Shown here: positions 14,433 to 48,341 of the stretch, piece by piece
How positions within the stretch are numbered: the first letter of the stretch is position 1
Layout: each line of letters begins with the position of its first letter
Assembly: GCA_963819095.1 (NCBI GenBank)
Contig: CAWFUO010000012.1
Location: 145,701-209,700 of the forward strand
From: Candidatus Dormiibacterota bacterium
GTDB lineage: Bacteria > Chloroflexota > Dormibacteria > Aeolococcales > Aeolococcaceae
Reading direction: 5' to 3'
Length of the DNA stretch: 64,000 nt
Notes under the pieces: model-generated
What the model was told of the DNA's origin: nothing
Seen by the model: only the letters and a program-made list of their open reading frames with translations
Databases searched by the model: none
Made by a program: the position numbers and the translations under genes

Positions 14433-17400
14433 TCAGCCTGTCACGGGCGAGAGCGCGGCCCATCTGGCTTCGACGCGACGGACGTGCGCGACCCCTGCGG
14501 GACCCCGCTTGCTCTCGTACAGCGCGACGGCGCGCCTGGACTGCTCGAATGCGCCGTTGATGTCGCCCGACAGGTACAGCACTTCGCCGAGGGCGAGGGA
14601 TGCCTGGGCAATCTCCATCGGTGCCTGGGTGGTTGCGGCCAGATCAACTGCATGCTGGGCAAGGCCCATCGCCTCTTCGAAGCCACCACTGCGCGCGAGG
14701 AGCTTGGCGCGGACGCCGAAACCGGCCACCTGGGTCAGGATGTCCCCGGCTCCTCCCAGCTCGAGGCCCCGAAGCACCCAGTGTTCGGCCTCCTCAAGAC
14801 GACCGAGCGCGTACAGCGCCTCAGCGAGCTGGCAGGCCGACGTCGAGAGCCAGGCGCGTTCGCCCATCTGCTCGAGCTCATCAACACCTTGCCGAGCAGC
14901 GCGCTCCGCGGCATCGAGATCGCCGGCCAGGGTTTCGATCTGCCACGCAGCCTGCATCACAATCGCGGTCCCGGTGACCATCCCCCGTTCGCGCATCTGA
15001 TCGAGGATTTCGGCAAAGAGGACGCGTGCTTCTGCGTATTCCCCTCGGTACGCGAGAACGAAAGCCTTCCATACAGCGAGAATCGGCTGGAAGCCGCGGA
15101 GCTCCTGCAGCTCCTGCGCGAACCAGACCAGCGCGTCATCAAATGGGACTGACCCGTTGGCCATCGCCGCCGAGCGAAGCGCCGGCGACGCCGTGGCCGT
15201 CCAGGACACCTCCGCGTCACGTGCATGCTGCGCGACGCGCGTTGACGCCTCGAACGATGCATCGAACCGGCCCCGGTAATGCTCGACGAACGCAGCTGCG
15301 GCTTCGAGCGTTGCCAGGGAATCCTTGTCCCCGCTCCGTTCGATGACGGGCCGGGCTCGGTCCACCAGCGCGCTCATCTCGTTCTCGTACGTTTCGGGGT
15401 CGAGGTTTGTTCGCCAGACGACGCCGATCAATCGCGCCTGCAGCGCCCGAACCTCCAGGCCGGCCGACTCCGACCGATCCGCTGCCCGGTCAGCACGAGC
15501 GATCGCGTCGCTCAGCCTGCCAACCATGCCGAGCGCCTGGATGAGCGCTTCCTCGAGGGGGAATGCGATCTCGCCATCAGGAAGGAGGAGTTCCGCCCGC
15601 TGCAGAAGGTTGATCGTCGCGCTGGTGTCGCCCCGGTCCAGCGCGCGCCTGCCGGCGGCCTGCAGTCGCTCTGCGCCGGCGGTCGCGAGCGCGCGAGCCA
15701 CCGCGTCCACCGGTCCCAACTCGGCGCGATACCGGAACGCCTGCTCGAGGTGATAGCCGGCAATCTCATCCAGCTCCTCGAGATCGCCGCCGTGCTGGAT
15801 CAGCCACTCGGCAAACCGCGCGTGCAGGTCGGCACGTTCTGCTTTGGGCAATGAGTCGTACGCGGCGTCGCGGATCAGAAGATGACGGAAGGCGAAAGCG
15901 TCCTCGCCCGCGAAGACCGGGCGGTCGGGACGCAGCAGATCCTTGCGCACCAGGGTCATCAGCCGCCCTCCGACGTCGTGTTCCTCAGGTGCCATCACCT
16001 CGACCGCGCCGCGATGAAAGGACTGTCCTTCGACCGATCCGCGCTCGAGCAGACCGCGGTCCTCGGGTCGCAGCTGATCGAACCGTGCTGCCAGCAGTGC
16101 CTTGATGTTCGGTGGAACGATGACGTCGTGGTTGGTTGACTCCCGGACCATCGCGACGATCTCCTCGACGAACAGCGGGTTTCCGGCAGCTGTGACGCGA
16201 ACCCGGTCACGCAGCTCCGGCGGGATGTCACCGCCGGCTGGAAGCAGCTCATCGATCAGCGCCTGCGTGTCGGCCGCATTGAGCGGTTCGAGCAGCACGG
16301 TGGTGGCGTTGAGCTTTCCACCGCCCCATCCAGGGCGCCGGTCGAGGAGCTCCGGCCGGCCCAGGCACAGCACCAGGATCGGCGCGCCGCGACTGAAGTC
16401 ACCGATATGCTCGATCAGATCGAGGAGAGTTGGCTCACCCCAGTGCACGTCATCAAGGACGATGACCAACGGTTTCGCCTCCGCGGCAGCCTCGAGCAGC
16501 TTGCGGACGGCCCACGCGATCTCGGTCGATGACGTCGTGATGCCGGCGTCGCCAAGCAGAGCCTTGATCGGTGTGGATACCGCGCTGTCACGCTCCAACA
16601 GCGCTGCAGCTTCGCCGGCCGTCCCGCCGAGCAACTGCTTGACCATCGCGATCACCGGCCAGTAGGTGATGCCCTCGCCATACGACAGGCAGCGTCCGCG
16701 CAGATGGGTTGCGTCGATGCTGCCGAGGAACTCCGCGATGAGCCGGGTCTTGCCGACGCCGGCGGCGCCGAGGACGGTGAACATGCTGCACGACCGTCCG
16801 TCGACGACATTGGCGAACGCGTCGTTGAGCATGCGGAGGTGCGTTCCCCGCCCGACCATCGGACCCTCGATCCTGTGGCCTTTGTCGCGCTCCTCAGCGC
16901 CCAGCGCCACAAAGCGGTACGCCGACACCGGGAGGCTCTTGCCCTTCAGCTCGAGCGGCGCGAGCGGCTCGACGGTCACCGCGTCACGGACCAGCCGCCA
17001 CGTCTCGGGACCGATGATGATCTCGCCCGGTGCAGCCGCCTGCTCGAGACGCGCTGCCAGGTTGACCGCATCGCCCGTGGCGAGCCGCTCCTCCGTGCCG
17101 GTGACGACCTGCCCCGTGTTCACGCCTGTCCGCACCGTCACAGTGGTTCCGTAGTCGCGTTCGAGGTCGCTGTTCAGAACCGTGAGCGCATCGCGCAGGC
17201 CCACCGCCGCGCGGACGGCACGCAGCGCGTCGTCCTCGTGCAGCACCGGCACACCGAAGACGGCCATCACGGCGTCGCCGATGAACTTCTCCACCGTCCC
17301 ACCATGCTGTTCGATGACCTTGCGAGCGGCGTCGAAGTAGCGGCGCATCACCTGACGGAGGCTCTCCGGATCCAGCCGCTCGCCCATCGCGGTCGATCCG

Positions 17401-39534: not shown

Positions 39535-39986
39535 GCGCCCGTCAACCGCGGCGGCGCGTCGACGGCCGGACGGATCACACGCGTTCCGTCGTCATCGATG
39601 TCGATGGTGATGCTGGCGGGCGCATCCCGCTCCCGAGACGCGTGCTCGCCCCACTCCACGACCACCACGCCGCCGGACTCGAGCATCTCGTCGATGTCGA
39701 GCAGACGGATGTCCGCGTCGGGGCCAAGCCGGTACAGGTCCAGGTGGTGGAGCACCTTCGGTCCAGCGCGATAGATGTGGTGCAGCACGAAGGTCGGCGA
39801 TCGCACCAGGCTCGGGTCGATGCCCATGCCCGCGGCGATCCCCCGCACCAGGACCGTCTTCCCGGCGCCGAGCTGGCCGCTCAAGAGAATGAGATCACCC
39901 GGCTGCACGCGGGTGCCGATCCGCTCGCCAAGCGCGAGGGTCTCGGCTTCAGTCGAGCAGCGCGCCGCTGCCGCGATGTCACTCAT
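39510..39986 (-). CDS. tsaE: tRNA threonylcarbamoyladenosine biosynthesis ATPase TsaE
   Basis: LSGQLGAGKT Walker A, SPTFVLHHIY and LDLYRL motifs. Start at MSDIAAAAR. Confidence 0.8.
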   Translation of the reverse strand: MSDIAAAARCSTEAETLALGERIGTRVQPGDLILLSGQLGAGKTVLVRGIAAGMGIDPSLVRSPTFVLHHIYRAGPKVLHHLDLYRLGPDADIRLLDIDEMLESGGVVVVEWGEHASRERDAPASITIDIDDDGTRVIRPAVDAPPRLTGAWDQARQP

Positions 39987-40056
39987 GCGCCGATCCGCTC
40001 GCCAAGCGCTCGAGTTTCCGCTCCAATCGAGCACGGCGCGACAGCACCGATGTCCC

Positions 40057-41097
40057 TCACGTGAAGTGCCTCGACGTCGTCCGTGGCCGCGGCGCCGTCG
40101 CACCACCCTCACGATCGAGCACCGAGACCCCCTCGCCGTCACGCAAGCACCCGACAACACGCAGCGGCGCCAAACCAGCCGGCCACGAATCGAGCAACGC
40201 CCCCACTGCGCCCCACGGCAGGGCGGCCACCAGCTCGAAGTCCTCGCCTCCCCCCACCGCGAGATCGGGCCACGCCGAGCCGAAATCCGAGACCAGCGCC
40301 GCTTCCACCGGGAGCCGGTCCAGCCAGATCTCGGCCCCGCAGCCCGACATGTCGGTGATCCGTTCCAGCTCGACCAGGAGGCCGTCGCTGATGTCCCCGC
40401 CGCACCGAACCCCGAGTGACACCAGTTCCAGCCCCTCGGCGATACGGGCGATCGGCGACAGCTGGGCGTCCACCCACGCCTGCTCCTGCTCGGACAGCTC
40501 GCCGCCGTCGAGGAGCAGGCGCAACCCCGCGGCCGCCCTGCCGAGCGATCCCGTCACCACGAGCACGTCCCCCGGCCGGCCCGCATCGCGGCGCAGCACC
40601 GCCCCGGGAGCGACGGTCCCGCCGACCACGACGTCGATGACCAGGGGCCCGTCGATCGCGCTGACGTCGCCGCCGGCGACGGCACATCCAGCGGCTGATG
40701 CGGCACCGCAGAGCCCCCGCTGGATCTCGAGAACGTCCGCAAAGGACGTGGTCGAGGGCGCGCACAGCGTCGCCGAGCACCACACGGGGGTGGCGCCCAT
40801 GCCGGCCAGGTCGGACAGCGCCACCGCCATCGCCCGCGCCCCAAGGCGGCGCGGGCTGATCCACCAGCGCCGGAAATCCACCCCCTCCACCATGGCGTCC
40901 TGGCTCACCGCCAGGTCACGCCCGGCTTGGGGCGACCAGACGGCGGCATCGTCGCCCGAGCCGATCGCCAGGCCCCCCGATGCGGTCCGGGCGATCTCGG
41001 TGAGCGCCATCAGGAGGGCACGCTCGCCGGTGTCCGCCAGGGTCGGACCGCCCTGGTCGAAGGCCGGATCGGCTGTGCTGTCGGCTTCCAACGTCAC
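40057..41097 (-). CDS. thiL: thiamine-monophosphate kinase
   Basis: GDDAAVW and MVEGVDF motifs. AIR-synthase-related fold. Confidence 0.75.
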   Translation of the reverse strand: MTLEADSTADPAFDQGGPTLADTGERALLMALTEIARTASGGLAIGSGDDAAVWSPQAGRDLAVSQDAMVEGVDFRRWWISPRRLGARAMAVALSDLAGMGATPVWCSATLCAPSTTSFADVLEIQRGLCGAASAAGCAVAGGDVSAIDGPLVIDVVVGGTVAPGAVLRRDAGRPGDVLVVTGSLGRAAAGLRLLLDGGELSEQEQAWVDAQLSPIARIAEGLELVSLGVRCGGDISDGLLVELERITDMSGCGAEIWLDRLPVEAALVSDFGSAWPDLAVGGGEDFELVAALPWGAVGALLDSWPAGLAPLRVVGCLRDGEGVSVLDREGGATAPRPRTTSRHFT

Positions 41098-43576: not shown

Positions 43577-45409
43577 CTATTCCACAGTCACCGACTTGGC
43601 GAGGTTGCGCGGCTGATCGACATCGCAGCCGCGCTGCACGGCCACGTGATACGCGAACAGCTGCAGGGGCACGACGTTGATCAGCGGCGAGAGCACCTCC
43701 GAGCACGCGGGCACCGGAACCGTCGAGGCGAAGCCGGCGTCGAACGGATCCTCGCCCTCGGTGATGAGCGCGATCACCGGCGCGTCGCGCGAATGCACCT
43801 CCTGCACGTTGCTCACCATCTTGGGGAGCGTCGCAGAGCGTGTCGCGATGGCGATCACCGGCACCTCGGGCTCGAGCAGTGCGATCGGACCGTGCTTGAG
43901 CTCGCCGGCCGCGTATCCCTCGGCGTGCACGTACGAGATCTCCTTGAGCTTGAGCGCTCCTTCCATCGCGATCGGGAAGTTGATGCCCCTGCCGATGTAC
44001 AGCGCGCTCTGCGCATGCGCGAAACGCTGACCGATTTCGACGAGCATCGGCTCCAGCTCGAGCGTCCGCGTGAGCAGGTCGGGGAGCTGCTGCATCTCCG
44101 CCACCAGGCGCTGATGCTCGGCAACATCCAGCGTCCCGCGCGCATCGCCAAGCCGGAGCGCGAGCAGGAGGCCGCACACCATCTGGGTCATGAACGTCTT
44201 GGTGCCGGCGACCGAGATCTCCGGGCCCGCCTGCATGTACAGCGAGCCGTCCGCCTCCAGTGACAGCGCACTCCCGACGACATTCGTGATCGCAATCACC
44301 TGCGCACCGGCTGCGTGCGCCTGACGCACCGCGGCGAGCGTATCGGCGGTCTCACCCGACTGCGACACGGCGATGACCAGCGAGTGCTCATCGACGAGCG
44401 CCTCACCGTAGCGGAACTCGCTCGCCGCCTCCACCTTGCATCGAACCTTGGCGAGATGCTCGATCGCATAGCCGGCAACCATCGCCGCATACCACGCCGA
44501 TCCGCACGCCACCAGCACCACCTCGTGCACCCCGGCGAGTGTCTCCTCGCTCATCCCGAGCTCGGGCAGCGACACCATGCCGAGCTCGTCGATCCGTCCG
44601 CGCAGCGCATGGCGGACGGCCTCCGGCTGCTCATGGATCTCCTTGAGGAGAAAGTGCGGAAAGCCGTTCTTCTGCGCCTGCTCCGCCTCCCAGTCGACCG
44701 TTACGATGCGCGCCTCGACAACGGTTCCGTCGAGCTGCTGCACCGTGATCCCGTCCGGCGTTGCGGTCACGATCTCGCCTTCCCCGATCAGCGCGATCCG
44801 CTTGGTATATGGGATCAACGCGGTGATGTCGCTGCTCACGAACACCTCGCCGCGTCCCAGCCCCACCACCAGCGGTGCGTTCATGCGCGCACCGACGACG
44901 CGGTCCGGTTGATCGGCGGAGATGACCACCAGTGCGCACGCACCCTGCATGCGATTCAGCGCGCTGCGCACCGCCGCGGCGAGGTCACCGTGAAACGCAT
45001 CCTCGATGAGGTGCGGCACCACCTCGGTGTCGGTCTCGCTGAGGAACTCGTGTCCGCGCGACATCAGCTCGGCGCGCAGCTCGCGATAGTTCTCGACGAT
45101 GCCGTTGTGAATGACGTGAATGCGCCCCGTGCAATCCTGGTGCGGATGCGCGTTTTCGAGCGAGGGACGCCCGTGCGTCGCCCAACGCGTATGGCCGATT
45201 CCGACCGTTCCCGCCGGCGTGCCTTCGGCGTCCACCTGGCGGGCGAGGTCAGCGACCTTGTGGGTGTTCTTGACGGTGGCGACATCGCCGTCCGGGTCGA
45301 TGATCGCGATCCCGGCCGAGTCGTAGCCCCGGTACTCGAGACGCATCAGGCTGTCGAGCAGGATCGGTGCTGCTGGACGGGGGCCGGTGTAGCCGATGAT
45401 GCCGCACAT
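43577..45409 (-). CDS. glmS: glutamine--fructose-6-phosphate aminotransferase
   Basis: MCGIIGY N-terminus, two SIS domains, C-terminal ...KSVTVE. 610 aa intact. Confidence 0.95.
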   Translation of the reverse strand: MCGIIGYTGPRPAAPILLDSLMRLEYRGYDSAGIAIIDPDGDVATVKNTHKVADLARQVDAEGTPAGTVGIGHTRWATHGRPSLENAHPHQDCTGRIHVIHNGIVENYRELRAELMSRGHEFLSETDTEVVPHLIEDAFHGDLAAAVRSALNRMQGACALVVISADQPDRVVGARMNAPLVVGLGRGEVFVSSDITALIPYTKRIALIGEGEIVTATPDGITVQQLDGTVVEARIVTVDWEAEQAQKNGFPHFLLKEIHEQPEAVRHALRGRIDELGMVSLPELGMSEETLAGVHEVVLVACGSAWYAAMVAGYAIEHLAKVRCKVEAASEFRYGEALVDEHSLVIAVSQSGETADTLAAVRQAHAAGAQVIAITNVVGSALSLEADGSLYMQAGPEISVAGTKTFMTQMVCGLLLALRLGDARGTLDVAEHQRLVAEMQQLPDLLTRTLELEPMLVEIGQRFAHAQSALYIGRGINFPIAMEGALKLKEISYVHAEGYAAGELKHGPIALLEPEVPVIAIATRSATLPKMVSNVQEVHSRDAPVIALITEGEDPFDAGFASTVPVPACSEVLSPLINVVPLQLFAYHVAVQRGCDVDQPRNLAKSVTVE

Positions 45410-45443
45410 AGGACCTCTCTGGAACGGACGTGGAGGGAAGGGG

Positions 45444-46431
45444 TTACGTGCCGGGCGTGGGGGTGGGTGTCGGGGCCGGCGTGGGTGACGGCGGCGGCGT
45501 GGGGATCGTGCCCATCTCGATCTCGACCGACACCTGTTTCACCGAGAGGGTGATGCCCGCCGGGGCGATGATGTCGACGGTTTGCGTGAAGTCGCCGGTG
45601 ATGCCGCCGAGCGGGATCGCCACGGTGCTGAGATTCAGGAATGAGTTGAGCAGGTCCTGTGGCCCGGTCGCGACGACGCTGAACGGTGTGACGATGATCC
45701 CGATCAGGTAGTGACCCTGGGATGGGTTGCCGACGATCCGCGGCGCAATCGCAACGCGTGCGTGTGGTCACGACCGCGGTGATCGAGATGCTGATGCTCA
45801 CATCGCTGGGTTTGGCACTGACGTTGTTGAGCCGCTGGTTGTCGTTTCCATACACGAGGACGGGGACCTGCTCCTGGAAATTCGCCTTCTGATTGCTCAG
45901 GTTGACCGACGCACGCGCCTGGATGTTGGCGAGCTCGTGCGCGGGTCCGTCGACCACCACGGTGGACGGGGCAGCCTGCTGCGAGACGATGTCGTAGCCC
46001 GCCGGCGGAGGATTGGTGATCGTGATCGTCACCGGGATCGACTTGGACGTGAACGCATCCAGGTCGACCTGGACCGATGACGGCCGATCGATGATCTCGA
46101 TGTTGGGATCCGTGCTCGTGATCGTCATCGGGATGGAATACGTTCCGGCGCGATTCACCGCCGCCCAGTCCACGTTGACCGTGAACACGGTGGGGTTGAG
46201 CGTGCTCAGCGTGTTCTGGTCGCCTCCGACACGAACCAGGACGTTGCTCACCGGGTGGACGAGCACATATCCGGAGGGCACGTTCGCTGCGCTCTGCGGC
46301 ACCGCGAGCGACACCAGCCTGGTCTCGGGCGGATTGCCCGCATACACAACCCCGACCCACGTCACGAACGCGATGAAGAAGCACAGCACCTTGAGCTTCC
46401 AGTTGCGGCGGATGAAACCTGGGATTCTCAT
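45444..46431 (-). CDS. cdaR: CdaR (YbbR-repeat regulator of diadenylate cyclase), single frameshift near 45750-45770
   Basis: N-terminal TM + YbbR repeats in ORF 45346..46431. After a 1-nt shift the third frame gives ...IVGNPSQGHYLIGIIVTPFSVVATGP...VKQVSVEIEMGTIPTPPPSPTPAPTPTPTPGT*. Confidence 0.7.
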
Positions 46432-47297
46432 GGGTGCGACCGGCGCCTGATCGTGCGCAGCGTGCCGACCCGTTGCAGCGGGCGGAGCATTGCCGCGCGT
46501 CCCGAGCCGCCCTCCTTCTCGAGCAGGCTGACCAGCATCTCGTGCAGCTTGGCCTGGTCGAGACCCCGGTAGATCTTGCCGTCGTGGGCGATGCTGATCA
46601 GCCCGGTCTCCTCACTGACGATGAGCACCACCGCGTCGCTCTGCATGGTCAGCCCGAGCGCCGCCCGATGCCGGGTTCCCATGCGCCCGACGCCCGGAAG
46701 CGTCTCGGCGAGGGGCAGCACGCAGCCCGCGGCCACGATCCGGCTCTCGCGGATGATCACCGCCCCGTCGTGCAGCGGTGACCCGGGGATGAAGATGGTG
46801 GCGAGCATCTCTGCGGTGACGTCGCCGTTGACGGCCACGCCCGTCGCGGCGAGGTTCTCGAGTCCCGTCTCTCGCTCGAAGACGATCAGCGCACCAACCT
46901 TGTGTTCGGAGAGCGAGGCGGCCGCGCGCAGCACCTCGTCGACGGTTCGGGCGTAGGCCACCTCCGGGTGCCGTCCCAGCACGGCGCGGACCGTGCCGAG
47001 CCGTCCGACCTGGTCGAGCGCTCTTCGCAGCTCCGGCTGGAACAGGACGATCGCGGCGATCACGATCGCCTGGGTCCCGTTGTTGAAGATGAATTCGAGG
47101 AGGCGAAGGTGCAGCAGCTGCGCCGCCCACCCGACCGCGAAGATCACCGCGAGCCCGAGCAGCAGCTGGACCGCCTGGGTTCCCCGGATCAGCTTGAGCA
47201 GCTGGTACAGGAGGAAGGCGACCACCAGCACGTCGAGGCCATCGCGCCAGCTCAGGCTCTGCAGGAAGAAGTGCGCGTTCCGAAGGAAGTCGCTCAC
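46428..47297 (-). CDS. cdaA: diadenylate cyclase CdaA
   Basis: N-terminal TM helices. DAC domain GALIVFERE..., DGAVII and RHRAALG motifs. GTG start. Confidence 0.85.
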   Translation of the reverse strand: MSDFLRNAHFFLQSLSWRDGLDVLVVAFLLYQLLKLIRGTQAVQLLLGLAVIFAVGWAAQLLHLRLLEFIFNNGTQAIVIAAIVLFQPELRRALDQVGRLGTVRAVLGRHPEVAYARTVDEVLRAAASLSEHKVGALIVFERETGLENLAATGVAVNGDVTAEMLATIFIPGSPLHDGAVIIRESRIVAAGCVLPLAETLPGVGRMGTRHRAALGLTMQSDAVVLIVSEETGLISIAHDGKIYRGLDQAKLHEMLVSLLEKEGGSGRAAMLRPLQRVGTLRTIRRRSHP

Positions 47298-47411
47298 CGG
47301 CGCACCTCTCTCATCACGAGCAGCGCCCAGTCACAGCAGTCGCTCACCCGCGCGCCTCTCCGATCACGATCCGCGCCCAGTCACGGCCGCCACTCACGCC
47401 GCCACCGCGCC
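47289..47411. repeat. tandem 50-nt direct repeat (2 full units + partial) spanning argF stop / cdaA start
   Basis: Units 47289-47338 and 47339-47388 are ~85% identical. A partial third copy overlaps the argF stop. Confidence 0.8.
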
Positions 47412-48341
47412 AGCGTCATCCGCGTAGATCAGGGCAAGCAGCGCCTGCTGCACCCACAGCCGGTTCTCCGCCTGGTCGAACACGACCGAGTGCGGCCCAT
47501 CGATGACCGCATCGGTGATCTCCTCACCACGATGCGCCGGGAGGCAGTGCATCACCCGGACGCCCGCCGGCGCCAGCGCCACGAGCGCGTCATTGACCTG
47601 CAGGGACGCGAAATCCTCGCGCCGACGCTGCTGTTCGGTTTCCTGCCCCATGCTTGTCCAAACGTCCGTGTAGATGATTTCGGTATCGCGAAGCGCGGGC
47701 GCCGCCTCGTGCGTGATCTCGAAATCGGTGCCCGGCGCGCGCAGCCGGGCCGCCCGCTCGATGACCGCCGCCGGTGGCTCGTACCCCGGCGGGCAGATGA
47801 CCCGGAGGTGCACTCCGAGCAGCGCCGCCGCATAGATCCACGACGTGCAGACGTTGTTCCCGTCGCCGATGTACGCCACGGTCGCGCCCGCCAGCCGGCC
47901 GGTGACCGCGCGCACGGTCATGCAGTCGGCGAGCACCTGACACGGATGCTCGCTGTCGGTGAGGGCGTTGATGACCGGGGACGACGCGGCTCCCGCGATC
48001 GTGATCAGGTCCCGGTGGGAGACGAGGCGGGCCACGATGCCGTCCGCGTAACGGTCGAGGATCCGGCTGATGTCCGCGGCCAACTCGCGCTCGCCGAGCT
48101 GGACCTCGGGGTTGAACAGCGCGATCGGGTGGCCGCCGAGCCGGTGGATCGCCACCTCGAACGACACGCGGGTGCGGTTGCTCGGCCGTTGGAAGATGAG
48201 CGCCAGCGACCGGCCCGCGAGCGGGCTGCCGAGATCCCGCCCCGATTTGGCCGCGTCGGCCAGGTCGAGGACAGCGATGATCTCGTCGGTGCTGAGGTCC
48301 GCGATGCTCAGGAGATCACGACCGGCGAGCGAATGAGCCAT
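47394..48341 (-). CDS. argF: ornithine carbamoyltransferase
   Basis: SNRTRVSFE (STRTR) carbamoyl-phosphate motif, HCLPAHRGEE and TSMGQE. Confidence 0.8.
   Translation of the reverse strand: MAHSLAGRDLLSIADLSTDEIIAVLDLADAAKSGRDLGSPLAGRSLALIFQRPSNRTRVSFEVAIHRLGGHPIALFNPEVQLGERELAADISRILDRYADGIVARLVSHRDLITIAGAASSPVINALTDSEHPCQVLADCMTVRAVTGRLAGATVAYIGDGNNVCTSWIYAAALLGVHLRVICPPGYEPPAAVIERAARLRAPGTDFEITHEAAPALRDTEIIYTDVWTSMGQETEQQRRREDFASLQVNDALVALAPAGVRVMHCLPAHRGEEITDAVIDGPHSVVFDQAENRLWVQQALLALIYADDAGAVAA

Follow-up and report, generated by a model that had tools for sequence, protein, structure and literature searches.

The 64-kb window analyzed here (the whole stretch of DNA under study) comes from an uncultured soil bacterium of the Candidatus Dormibacterota and contains, between argF (ornithine carbamoyltransferase) and cdaA (diadenylate cyclase), a 100-nucleotide (nt) insert made up of two tandem copies of a 50-nt unit. 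The argF gene, the insert, cdaA, and the next gene, cdaR (YbbR), are all on the minus strand, and cdaR is followed by glmS; coordinates are given as positions within the window. Tandem Repeats Finder (TRF) places 2.4 copies of a period-50 repeat at 47288-47406 (81% matches), and a repeat search gives 86% identity between the two full periods in the phase 47288-47337/47338-47387. The two repeat units differ at 10 of their 50 positions. A partial third copy is formed by the first 10 nt of cdaA, GTGAGCGACT, and the TRF array extends accordingly to 47288. When the window was searched with the core pattern of the unit, for which no match was expected, only two were found, both within the insert.

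The 3' end of argF reads ...GCG GCG TGA, with the stop codon embedded in the tetranucleotide GTGA at 47397-47394 (minus strand). The same tetranucleotide is found at all three junctions, argF/uORF1, uORF1/uORF2, and uORF2/cdaA (at 47397, 47347, and 47297), where uORF1 and uORF2 denote the small upstream open reading frames (ORFs) of the two units, and GTGA is therefore present at either end of the insert. Translation of cdaA from the GTG at 47297 begins VSDFLRNAHFF. This anatomy bears out an earlier note on the same DNA, which had described a 50-nt unit present 2.5 times, a ribosome-binding region and GTG start in each unit, and GTGA overlaps chaining argF through two 17-codon ORFs to cdaA: a Shine-Dalgarno (SD)-like motif, GGAGAGG in one unit and GAGAGAGG in the other, lies 7 nt before the next GTG in both cases. 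The note's arithmetic, 51 nt of coding sequence minus a 1-nt overlap, held for the 50-nt period and not for its derivation; each mini-ORF instead spans 54 nt (17 sense codons plus TGA), of which the last 4 are shared with the ORF that follows. In the sister lineages (L066-L070) an SD-like GAGG precedes the argF-stop GTGA by 7 nt; the window has GCGG at this place (47411-47408), a substitution that replaces Glu by Ala in the tail of ArgF, and the predicted ribosome-binding site of uORF1 is weaker than those of uORF2 and cdaA. The features of this junction, together with those of a second duplicated junction described below, are collected in the Table.

Table. Features of the argF/cdaA and thiL/tsaE junctions, with positions within the window
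Feature	Position	Strand	Basis and details
argF (ornithine carbamoyltransferase)	47394..48341	-	Pfam OTCace_N + OTCace; NCBIfam TIGR00658, 352 bits (cut-off 281); stop TGA 47396-47394
Micro-repeat, 12/13 nt, GTGGCGGC-GTGA / GTGGCGGCC-GTGA	47381..47409	-	TRF period 12; argF tail and 5' end of unit 1
Repeat unit 1	47348..47397	-	TRF and strand reading; uORF1 from GTG 47397 to TGA 47346-47344 (47397..47344), encodes VSGGRDWARIVIGEARG
SD-like GGAGAGG, unit 1	47355..47361	-	7 nt 5' of the uORF2 GTG
Repeat unit 2	47298..47347	-	TRF and strand reading; uORF2 from GTG 47347 to TGA 47296-47294 (47347..47294), encodes VSDCCDWALLVMREVRR
SD-like GAGAGAGG, unit 2	47305..47312	-	7 nt 5' of the cdaA GTG
cdaA (diadenylate cyclase)	46428..47297	-	Pfam DAC + CdaA_N; NCBIfam TIGR00159, 231 bits (cut-off 189)
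Two 74-nt copies of the tsaE 5' end	39913..40060	-	TRF period 74, 39915-40059, 2.0 copies, 78% matches

The insert has no counterpart in the relatives of this organism. A scan of one genome per GTDB species with CdaA yielded 45 Candidatus Dormibacterota loci, 43 of which span the argF/cdaA junction. At every one of these 43 junctions the argF stop directly overlaps the cdaA start, as ATGA, GTGA, or TTGA, and none contains the 50-nt unit. The GTDB species loci are only about 85% identical to the window in DNA; closer lineages were sought with the fast-evolving CdaR, and the best relatives obtained, none of them a strain of the same species, were five contigs at 90-94% nucleotide identity, four of which reach the junction. 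In these four the sequence runs ...GGCGAGG(C/T)GGCGGC and then GTGAGCGAC..., a direct overlap preceded by GAGG at a distance of 7 nt. When these contigs are aligned to the window, the alignments are interrupted exactly at the 100-nt insert, and the flanks are gapless on both sides. The empty argF/cdaA sites thus number 47 among the relatives, with 0 copies in the closest lineages, and the insert is, by this comparison, particular to the lineage of the window. The nearest lineages differ from the window at about 20% of third codon positions. Since the insert is absent from these sister lineages, it is younger than the split that this divergence marks.

The ancestral arrangement is typical of the clade. 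In Dormibacterota, argF, cdaA, and cdaR form a co-directional gene string with 4-nt stop/start overlaps, and the -4 overlap is the commonest same-strand junction (17 of 49). SD cores at positions -16 to -7 precede 32% of clade genes, as against a background of 10%. Four records (L015, L029, L040, and L044), titled Saccharimonadales, Acidiferrales, or Chloroflexi, possess argF-cdaA loci whose CdaA is 78-93% identical to that of Dormibacterota; these are probably mislabelled or mis-binned contigs of metagenome-assembled genomes.

A second duplicated junction lies between thiL and tsaE, genes identified from NCBIfam. In a TRF analysis of the whole window, its period of 74 is the only other long period that is not a multiple of 3; the remaining local repeats all lie within coding sequences, with periods divisible by 3. 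The thiL stop is contained in a GTGA at 40060-40057, which opens a 25-codon relay ORF (VRDIGAVAPCSIGAETRALGERIGA; 40060..39983, minus strand), and an ATGA at 39986-39983 starts tsaE (MSDIAAAARCSTEAETLALGERIGT...). The sequence leaves no doubt about the origin: this mini-ORF was copied from the first 74 nt of tsaE and has since diverged. The sister contig L071 (JGI Ga0597539_0000059) has the same 74-nt duplication with identical boundaries and, at 16337-16425, an additional 45-nt tandem duplication (copies 93% identical) comprising the thiL tail, GTGA, and 11 nt. As 45 is a multiple of 3, the mini-ORF of L071 is merely longer, with 40 codons (16370..16492), and it still ends on the tsaE ATGA. 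The duplication is absent from four other lineages (L072, L073, L074-77, and L078), in which thiL and tsaE overlap directly. Between the window and L071 the mini-ORF copies share 72% identity and show neither indels nor in-frame stops, versus 88% identity for the functional tsaE 5' ends; the mini-ORF is thus drifting in sequence with its frame kept open. In both carriers of the duplication the former SD of tsaE, the GAGG in the thiL tail, now precedes the mini-ORF. Only these carriers start tsaE with ATG (39986-39984 in the window and 16489-16491 in L071); the codon is GTG in L072, L073, L074, and L078. The ATG may represent a compensatory upgrade of the start codon.

A candidate third event, at the tsaE-tsaB junction of L073, was rejected: a 1-nt indel that alters the gene call lies behind it, and the junction has the plain form GTGA throughout. 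The indel is an insertion in tsaB at about 11535-11545 of L073 (ENA contig_50616, the same contig as L001), which reads cgacaCcgtcg where the others read cgaca-cgtcg; it cuts the called gene to 140 amino acids, leaves the tsaE/tsaB overlap normal, and is probably a long-read indel error. A single-nucleotide insertion relative to L071 was also observed in the cdaR gene of the window (46431..45346, minus strand), near 45757 in a stretch of ACACGCACGCG. It frameshifts the C-terminal third of the protein, giving 361 amino acids instead of 328 and extending the ORF 64 nt into glmS; the frameshift may be real or may stem from an indel error in the assembly. In both the window (45463-45503) and L071 (10931-10972), an 18-nt in-frame tandem repeat codes for the C-terminal tail of CdaR, which is rich in Pro, Thr, and Ala. 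In L074 (18745-18797) and L075-L077, finally, a tandem repeat of period 25 (2.2 copies, 12% indels) occupies the 5' end of a gene for an ABC permease, immediately after the substrate-binding-protein gene.

Several features connect the 50-nt unit with the junction in which it lies. The first 10 nt of unit 2 are the first 10 nt of cdaA, and, with one gap, its first 14 nt match the commoner cdaA allele of the relatives (p=0.005). At their 3' ends, both units repeat the ancestral junction layout of GAGG, 7 nt, and GTGA. When a clean duplication of 50 nt of the junction was modelled with every possible breakpoint, the best in-register alignment, composed of GTGA, about 32 nt of the cdaA 5' end, and about 14 nt of the argF tail, gave 27-28 matches out of 50 (p ~0.01-0.03); with so few matches this model was retained as a partial explanation only. 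A simple origin from the argF tail was discarded, as the 11-mer GGCGCTGCTCG shared with the argF genes of relatives was not significant (p=0.12). The junction signal in the unit is real, and the origin of the unit would be local and junction-involving, if only partly resolved, rather than a simple recent copy.

The later history of the unit is recorded in the differences between its copies, which, at 10 of 50 positions, are too numerous for a fresh duplication. The final 8 nt of argF (GTGGCGGC) recur unchanged at positions 5-12 of unit 1, and this one patch, part of the micro-repeat at 47381..47409, accounts for 4 of the 10 differences; its presence in both unit 1 and the argF tail suggests continuing local slippage or conversion. 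Outside the patch the copies are about 85% identical, and on a local neutral clock the doubling of the unit would therefore have an age of about half to 0.7 that of the split from L071. The most likely origin would be a slipped-strand or microhomology-mediated duplication at the argF/cdaA junction, followed by a second doubling and by further local slippage.

We read the insert, with moderate confidence, as a junction-derived, lineage-specific tandem repeat that was tolerated because the relay of reading frames was kept, and that gives no evidence of conservation or regulation. According to this reading, 100 nt would have been added exactly at the argF/cdaA GTGA as two tandem copies, since diverged, of a unit whose 5' end copies the cdaA start (GTGAGCGACT) and whose 3' end repeats the ancestral spacing of SD and GTGA. 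As the unit starts with GTGA and has a length of 2 modulo 3, the frame from each GTG closes on the TGA of the next GTGA, and the insert thus automatically forms a relay of two 17-codon ORFs. Ribosomes finishing argF could then terminate and restart three times in succession, or load anew at the SDs of the units, and so reach cdaA. The same reasoning would apply to any duplication that contains an NTGA: a length of 2 modulo 3 would add a relay ORF, a length of 0 modulo 3 would place the first start in frame with the next ORF as an N-terminal extension, and a length of 1 modulo 3 would lead the ORF out of frame over the downstream start. The events observed here (50 nt, its doubling, 74 nt, and 45 nt) all belong to the two relay-compatible length classes. 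Termination-reinitiation coupling is lost at a stop-start distance of about 20 nt in E. coli and Haloferax (PMC10666635); an untranslated insert of 100 nt would therefore uncouple cdaA, while a chain of -4 overlaps could carry ribosomes across it. The insert may have been tolerated, then, because the delivery of ribosomes to cdaA was preserved, and inserts at overlapping junctions may in general be tolerated if their length preserves the relay.

A number of observations weigh against this reading. The unit is only about 55% identical, or about 45% diverged, with respect to any junction-derived parent; this exceeds the local neutral clock (about 20% at third positions) and argues against a clean recent copy, and the middle of the unit (GTGACTGGGCGC..TCGTGAT) matches no source found. 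In neutral simulations of relay survival, performed for each locus, about 40-45% of histories keep the relay, and we therefore make no claim of selection. Two of the three period classes are relay-compatible, and the first case was chosen for its relay look. Chains running from NTGA to NTGA are common by chance in the alternative frames of DNA with 68% GC; an unbiased scan for relay mini-ORFs was swamped by such false positives and was dropped, and for the same reason the internal network of GTGA sites, with spacings of 13, 17, and 20 nt, should not be over-read. Translation of the relay is itself something that we infer, and the absence of other copies of the unit is limited to what 64 kb of the source genome can reveal.

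Two explanations had been offered in the earlier note. The first, a recent slipped-strand duplication, stands as regards the duplication, and the word recent has to be qualified for copies that are 80-86% identical. The second, a leader-peptide-like device tuning diadenylate cyclase expression, did not survive the comparison with relatives; the note had itself named relatives with the argF stop directly on the cdaA start as evidence that would count against its proposal, and direct overlap was seen in every relative examined. A selected device, whether leader-peptide-like or a stepwise reinitiation attenuator that tunes cyclic di-AMP (c-di-AMP) output relative to argF, would find some encouragement in the probability that each reinitiation step is less than 100% efficient, so that two relay ORFs could lower cdaA translation, in the weakening of the SD before uORF1 (GAGG to GCGG) alongside strong SDs in the units, and in a relay that is intact despite 14-20% divergence between the copies. 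The insert is missing, however, from all 47 junctions of relatives, including those of lineages at 90-94% identity, and neutral simulation preserves the relay in about 42% of cases. The peptides of uORF1 and uORF2 are separated by nine nonsynonymous changes and one synonymous change, and nine altered residues for ten nucleotide differences indicate that no purifying selection acts on them. The fold energy of 47270-47430 is no better than that of shuffled sequence (z = -0.48), an Rfam scan returned nothing relevant (a sole match outside the insert, with E = 0.3 and 18.8 bits against a gathering score of 55), and no promoter-like or terminator-like sites were predicted in the insert region; on these results an RNA element was rejected. 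A literature search found no paper that connects cdaA with translational coupling. We conclude that a conserved leader-peptide or attenuator device is, on this evidence, not supported, that the mini-ORF peptides are meaningless by-products of the geometry of the insert, and that a selected regulatory role is improbable.

The remaining alternatives concern how cdaA is translated and where the insert came from. The mini-ORFs could be irrelevant, the insert being neutral, untranslated junk that uncouples cdaA from argF and leaves cdaA to start independently at the SD of unit 2. That site, GAGAGAGG at 7 nt before the GTG, can serve well as a ribosome-binding site on its own, the clade does make use of SDs, uORF1 is preceded by no more than a weak SD-like GCGG, and the relay's survival is not statistically significant. 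Terminating ribosomes nevertheless reinitiate efficiently at a -4 overlap in the bacteria as well as the archaea tested (PMC6728339, PMC10666635), and the stop of argF is still embedded in GTGA; moreover, all four junction duplications (the 50-nt unit and the event that doubled it, plus those of 74 and 45 nt) are of relay-compatible length, and tsaE lost its SD to a mini-ORF and yet the arrangement persisted in two lineages. We regard independent initiation as rather doubtful. An origin outside the junction, in which the unit belongs to a dispersed mobile family resembling the interspersed repetitive units of mycobacteria (MIRUs) and was inserted at the argF/cdaA NTGA with duplication of a GTGA target before reaching two copies, is unlikely as well. 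It would account for the poor resemblance of the unit to the junction (about 55%) and for a middle portion without local source, and the architecture is as MIRUs are described in PMC3184786 and PMC12548453: an intercistronic unit of 40-100 bp, ORF ends overlapping the neighbours, filled and empty sites, and a tetranucleotide direct repeat. Dispersed copies were sought by pattern search of the window, by blastn-short against the window and all loci, with an nhmmer profile of the two units, and by a metagenome-wide scan for the core pattern. Neither the 64-kb window nor about 0.47 Mb of relatives' loci nor the metagenome scan yielded a further copy, and blastn-short, the nhmmer profile, and the metagenome scan gave chance matches only, on which a dispersed repeat or foreign donor was rejected; with roughly one MIRU locus per 100 kb in M. 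tuberculosis, absence from 64 kb is weak evidence. Also at odds with a mobile origin, the unit has 10 nt, not 4, in common with the cdaA start and reproduces the ancestral spacing from SD to start, and the tsaE duplication in the same window is demonstrably local. Finally, the insert could be a spurious expansion or chimeric join at the junction, in a metagenome-type assembly that has at least one suspicious 1-nt indel, that which frameshifts cdaR, and whose cdaA, cdaR, argF, and glmS found no exact match in the public collections searched. Collapse, expansion, and mis-joining give near-identical copies of flanking sequence, whereas here 10 of 50 positions differ between the copies, whose resemblance to the true junction is only about 55%; in addition, the flanks align gaplessly to sister contigs on both sides, and a comparable junction duplication, of 74 nt, occurs in both of two independent assemblies (the window and the JGI contig L071). 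An assembly artefact is thus an unlikely source of the insert, and we give it very little credence.

Among known systems, the closest likeness to the junction-derived repeat proposed here is to the MIRUs. PMC3184786 and PMC12548453, both citing Supply et al. 1997, describe for MIRUs filled versus empty sites, a tetranucleotide direct repeat, ORFs coupled at -4, and a minimal downstream effect of insertion, which the -4 coupling is thought to ensure (PMC12548453). Like MIRUs, the insert consists of tandem units in the 40-100 bp range between co-directional operon genes (period 50, in argF-insert-cdaA-cdaR); each unit has one small ORF in the same orientation whose start and stop overlap its neighbours at -4 (the two 17-codon ORFs); there are filled and empty sites with a flanking tetranucleotide repeat (47 empty sites and GTGA at both ends); and the proposed consequence is alike, namely that ribosomes are passed on with little effect on the downstream gene. 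All four of these MIRU features were looked for in the insert and are present. MIRUs, however, are a dispersed family of about 40-50 loci per genome, thought to be mobile, restricted to mycobacteria, and polymorphic in copy number. Here there is no other copy in the sequence searched, the unit takes its ends from the junction where it lies, and the duplication at thiL/tsaE is plainly a gene start copied locally. As the host belongs to the Dormibacterota, MIRU membership by descent is very unlikely. We therefore do not file the insert as a MIRU, and liken it to MIRUs, and to synthetic bicistronic designs, by architecture and probable mode of operation rather than by sequence.

The other systems resemble the insert in part. 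In the coupled overlapping gene pairs of Huber et al. (2019, PMC6728339; 2023, PMC10666635), as in the ancestral argF/cdaA and at every junction of the insert, the overlap is a -4 NTGA; the known cases join two real genes, whereas here two non-functional 17-codon ORFs intervene and three successive reinitiations would be needed. Bicistronic designs and short delivery ORFs, as mentioned in PMC12548453 (refs 75 and 78), likewise have the downstream SD within the 3' end of a short ORF whose stop overlaps the downstream start; those are engineered or are uORFs of 5' leaders, whereas the insert is natural, operon-internal, and duplicated. Leader peptides and attenuation uORFs are also short ORFs upstream of a regulated gene. 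Unlike them, the insert lacks a conserved peptide, a regulatory codon run in excess of what the GC content predicts, alternative hairpins, and a terminator, and it does not lie at the 5' end of an operon.

The argF/cdaA insert is best explained as a young, unconserved curiosity in which the relay is a by-product of geometry and not a conserved regulator of diadenylate cyclase, and it leaves knowledge of c-di-AMP and arginine metabolism unchanged. It also carries a warning for annotation, as gaps of 50-120 nt in otherwise overlapping operons may be junction duplications that mislead start-site calls. A broader proposal, which is possible and which we hold only tentatively, is that Dormibacterota repeatedly make MIRU-like intercistronic minisatellites de novo from NTGA junctions, and that selection admits only lengths that keep the relay (0 or 2 modulo 3). 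The tsaE unit, a copy of the first 24 codons of its gene, would then represent the stage of birth, and the argF-cdaA unit, with drifted sequence, a strengthened SD, and higher copy number, a later stage. If true, this would give a general account of how MIRU-type elements originate and would offer multi-step reinitiation a natural testing ground. The three junction duplications in two close lineages, each with empty-site relatives, constitute a small dated series, which suggests that MIRU-like repeats may arise locally rather than by transposition. Furthermore, if the relay works, it would be a natural demonstration of translational coupling through a chain of meaningless mini-ORFs, and operons could absorb insertions at overlapping junctions without uncoupling an important gene such as cdaA, whose product makes the second messenger c-di-AMP.

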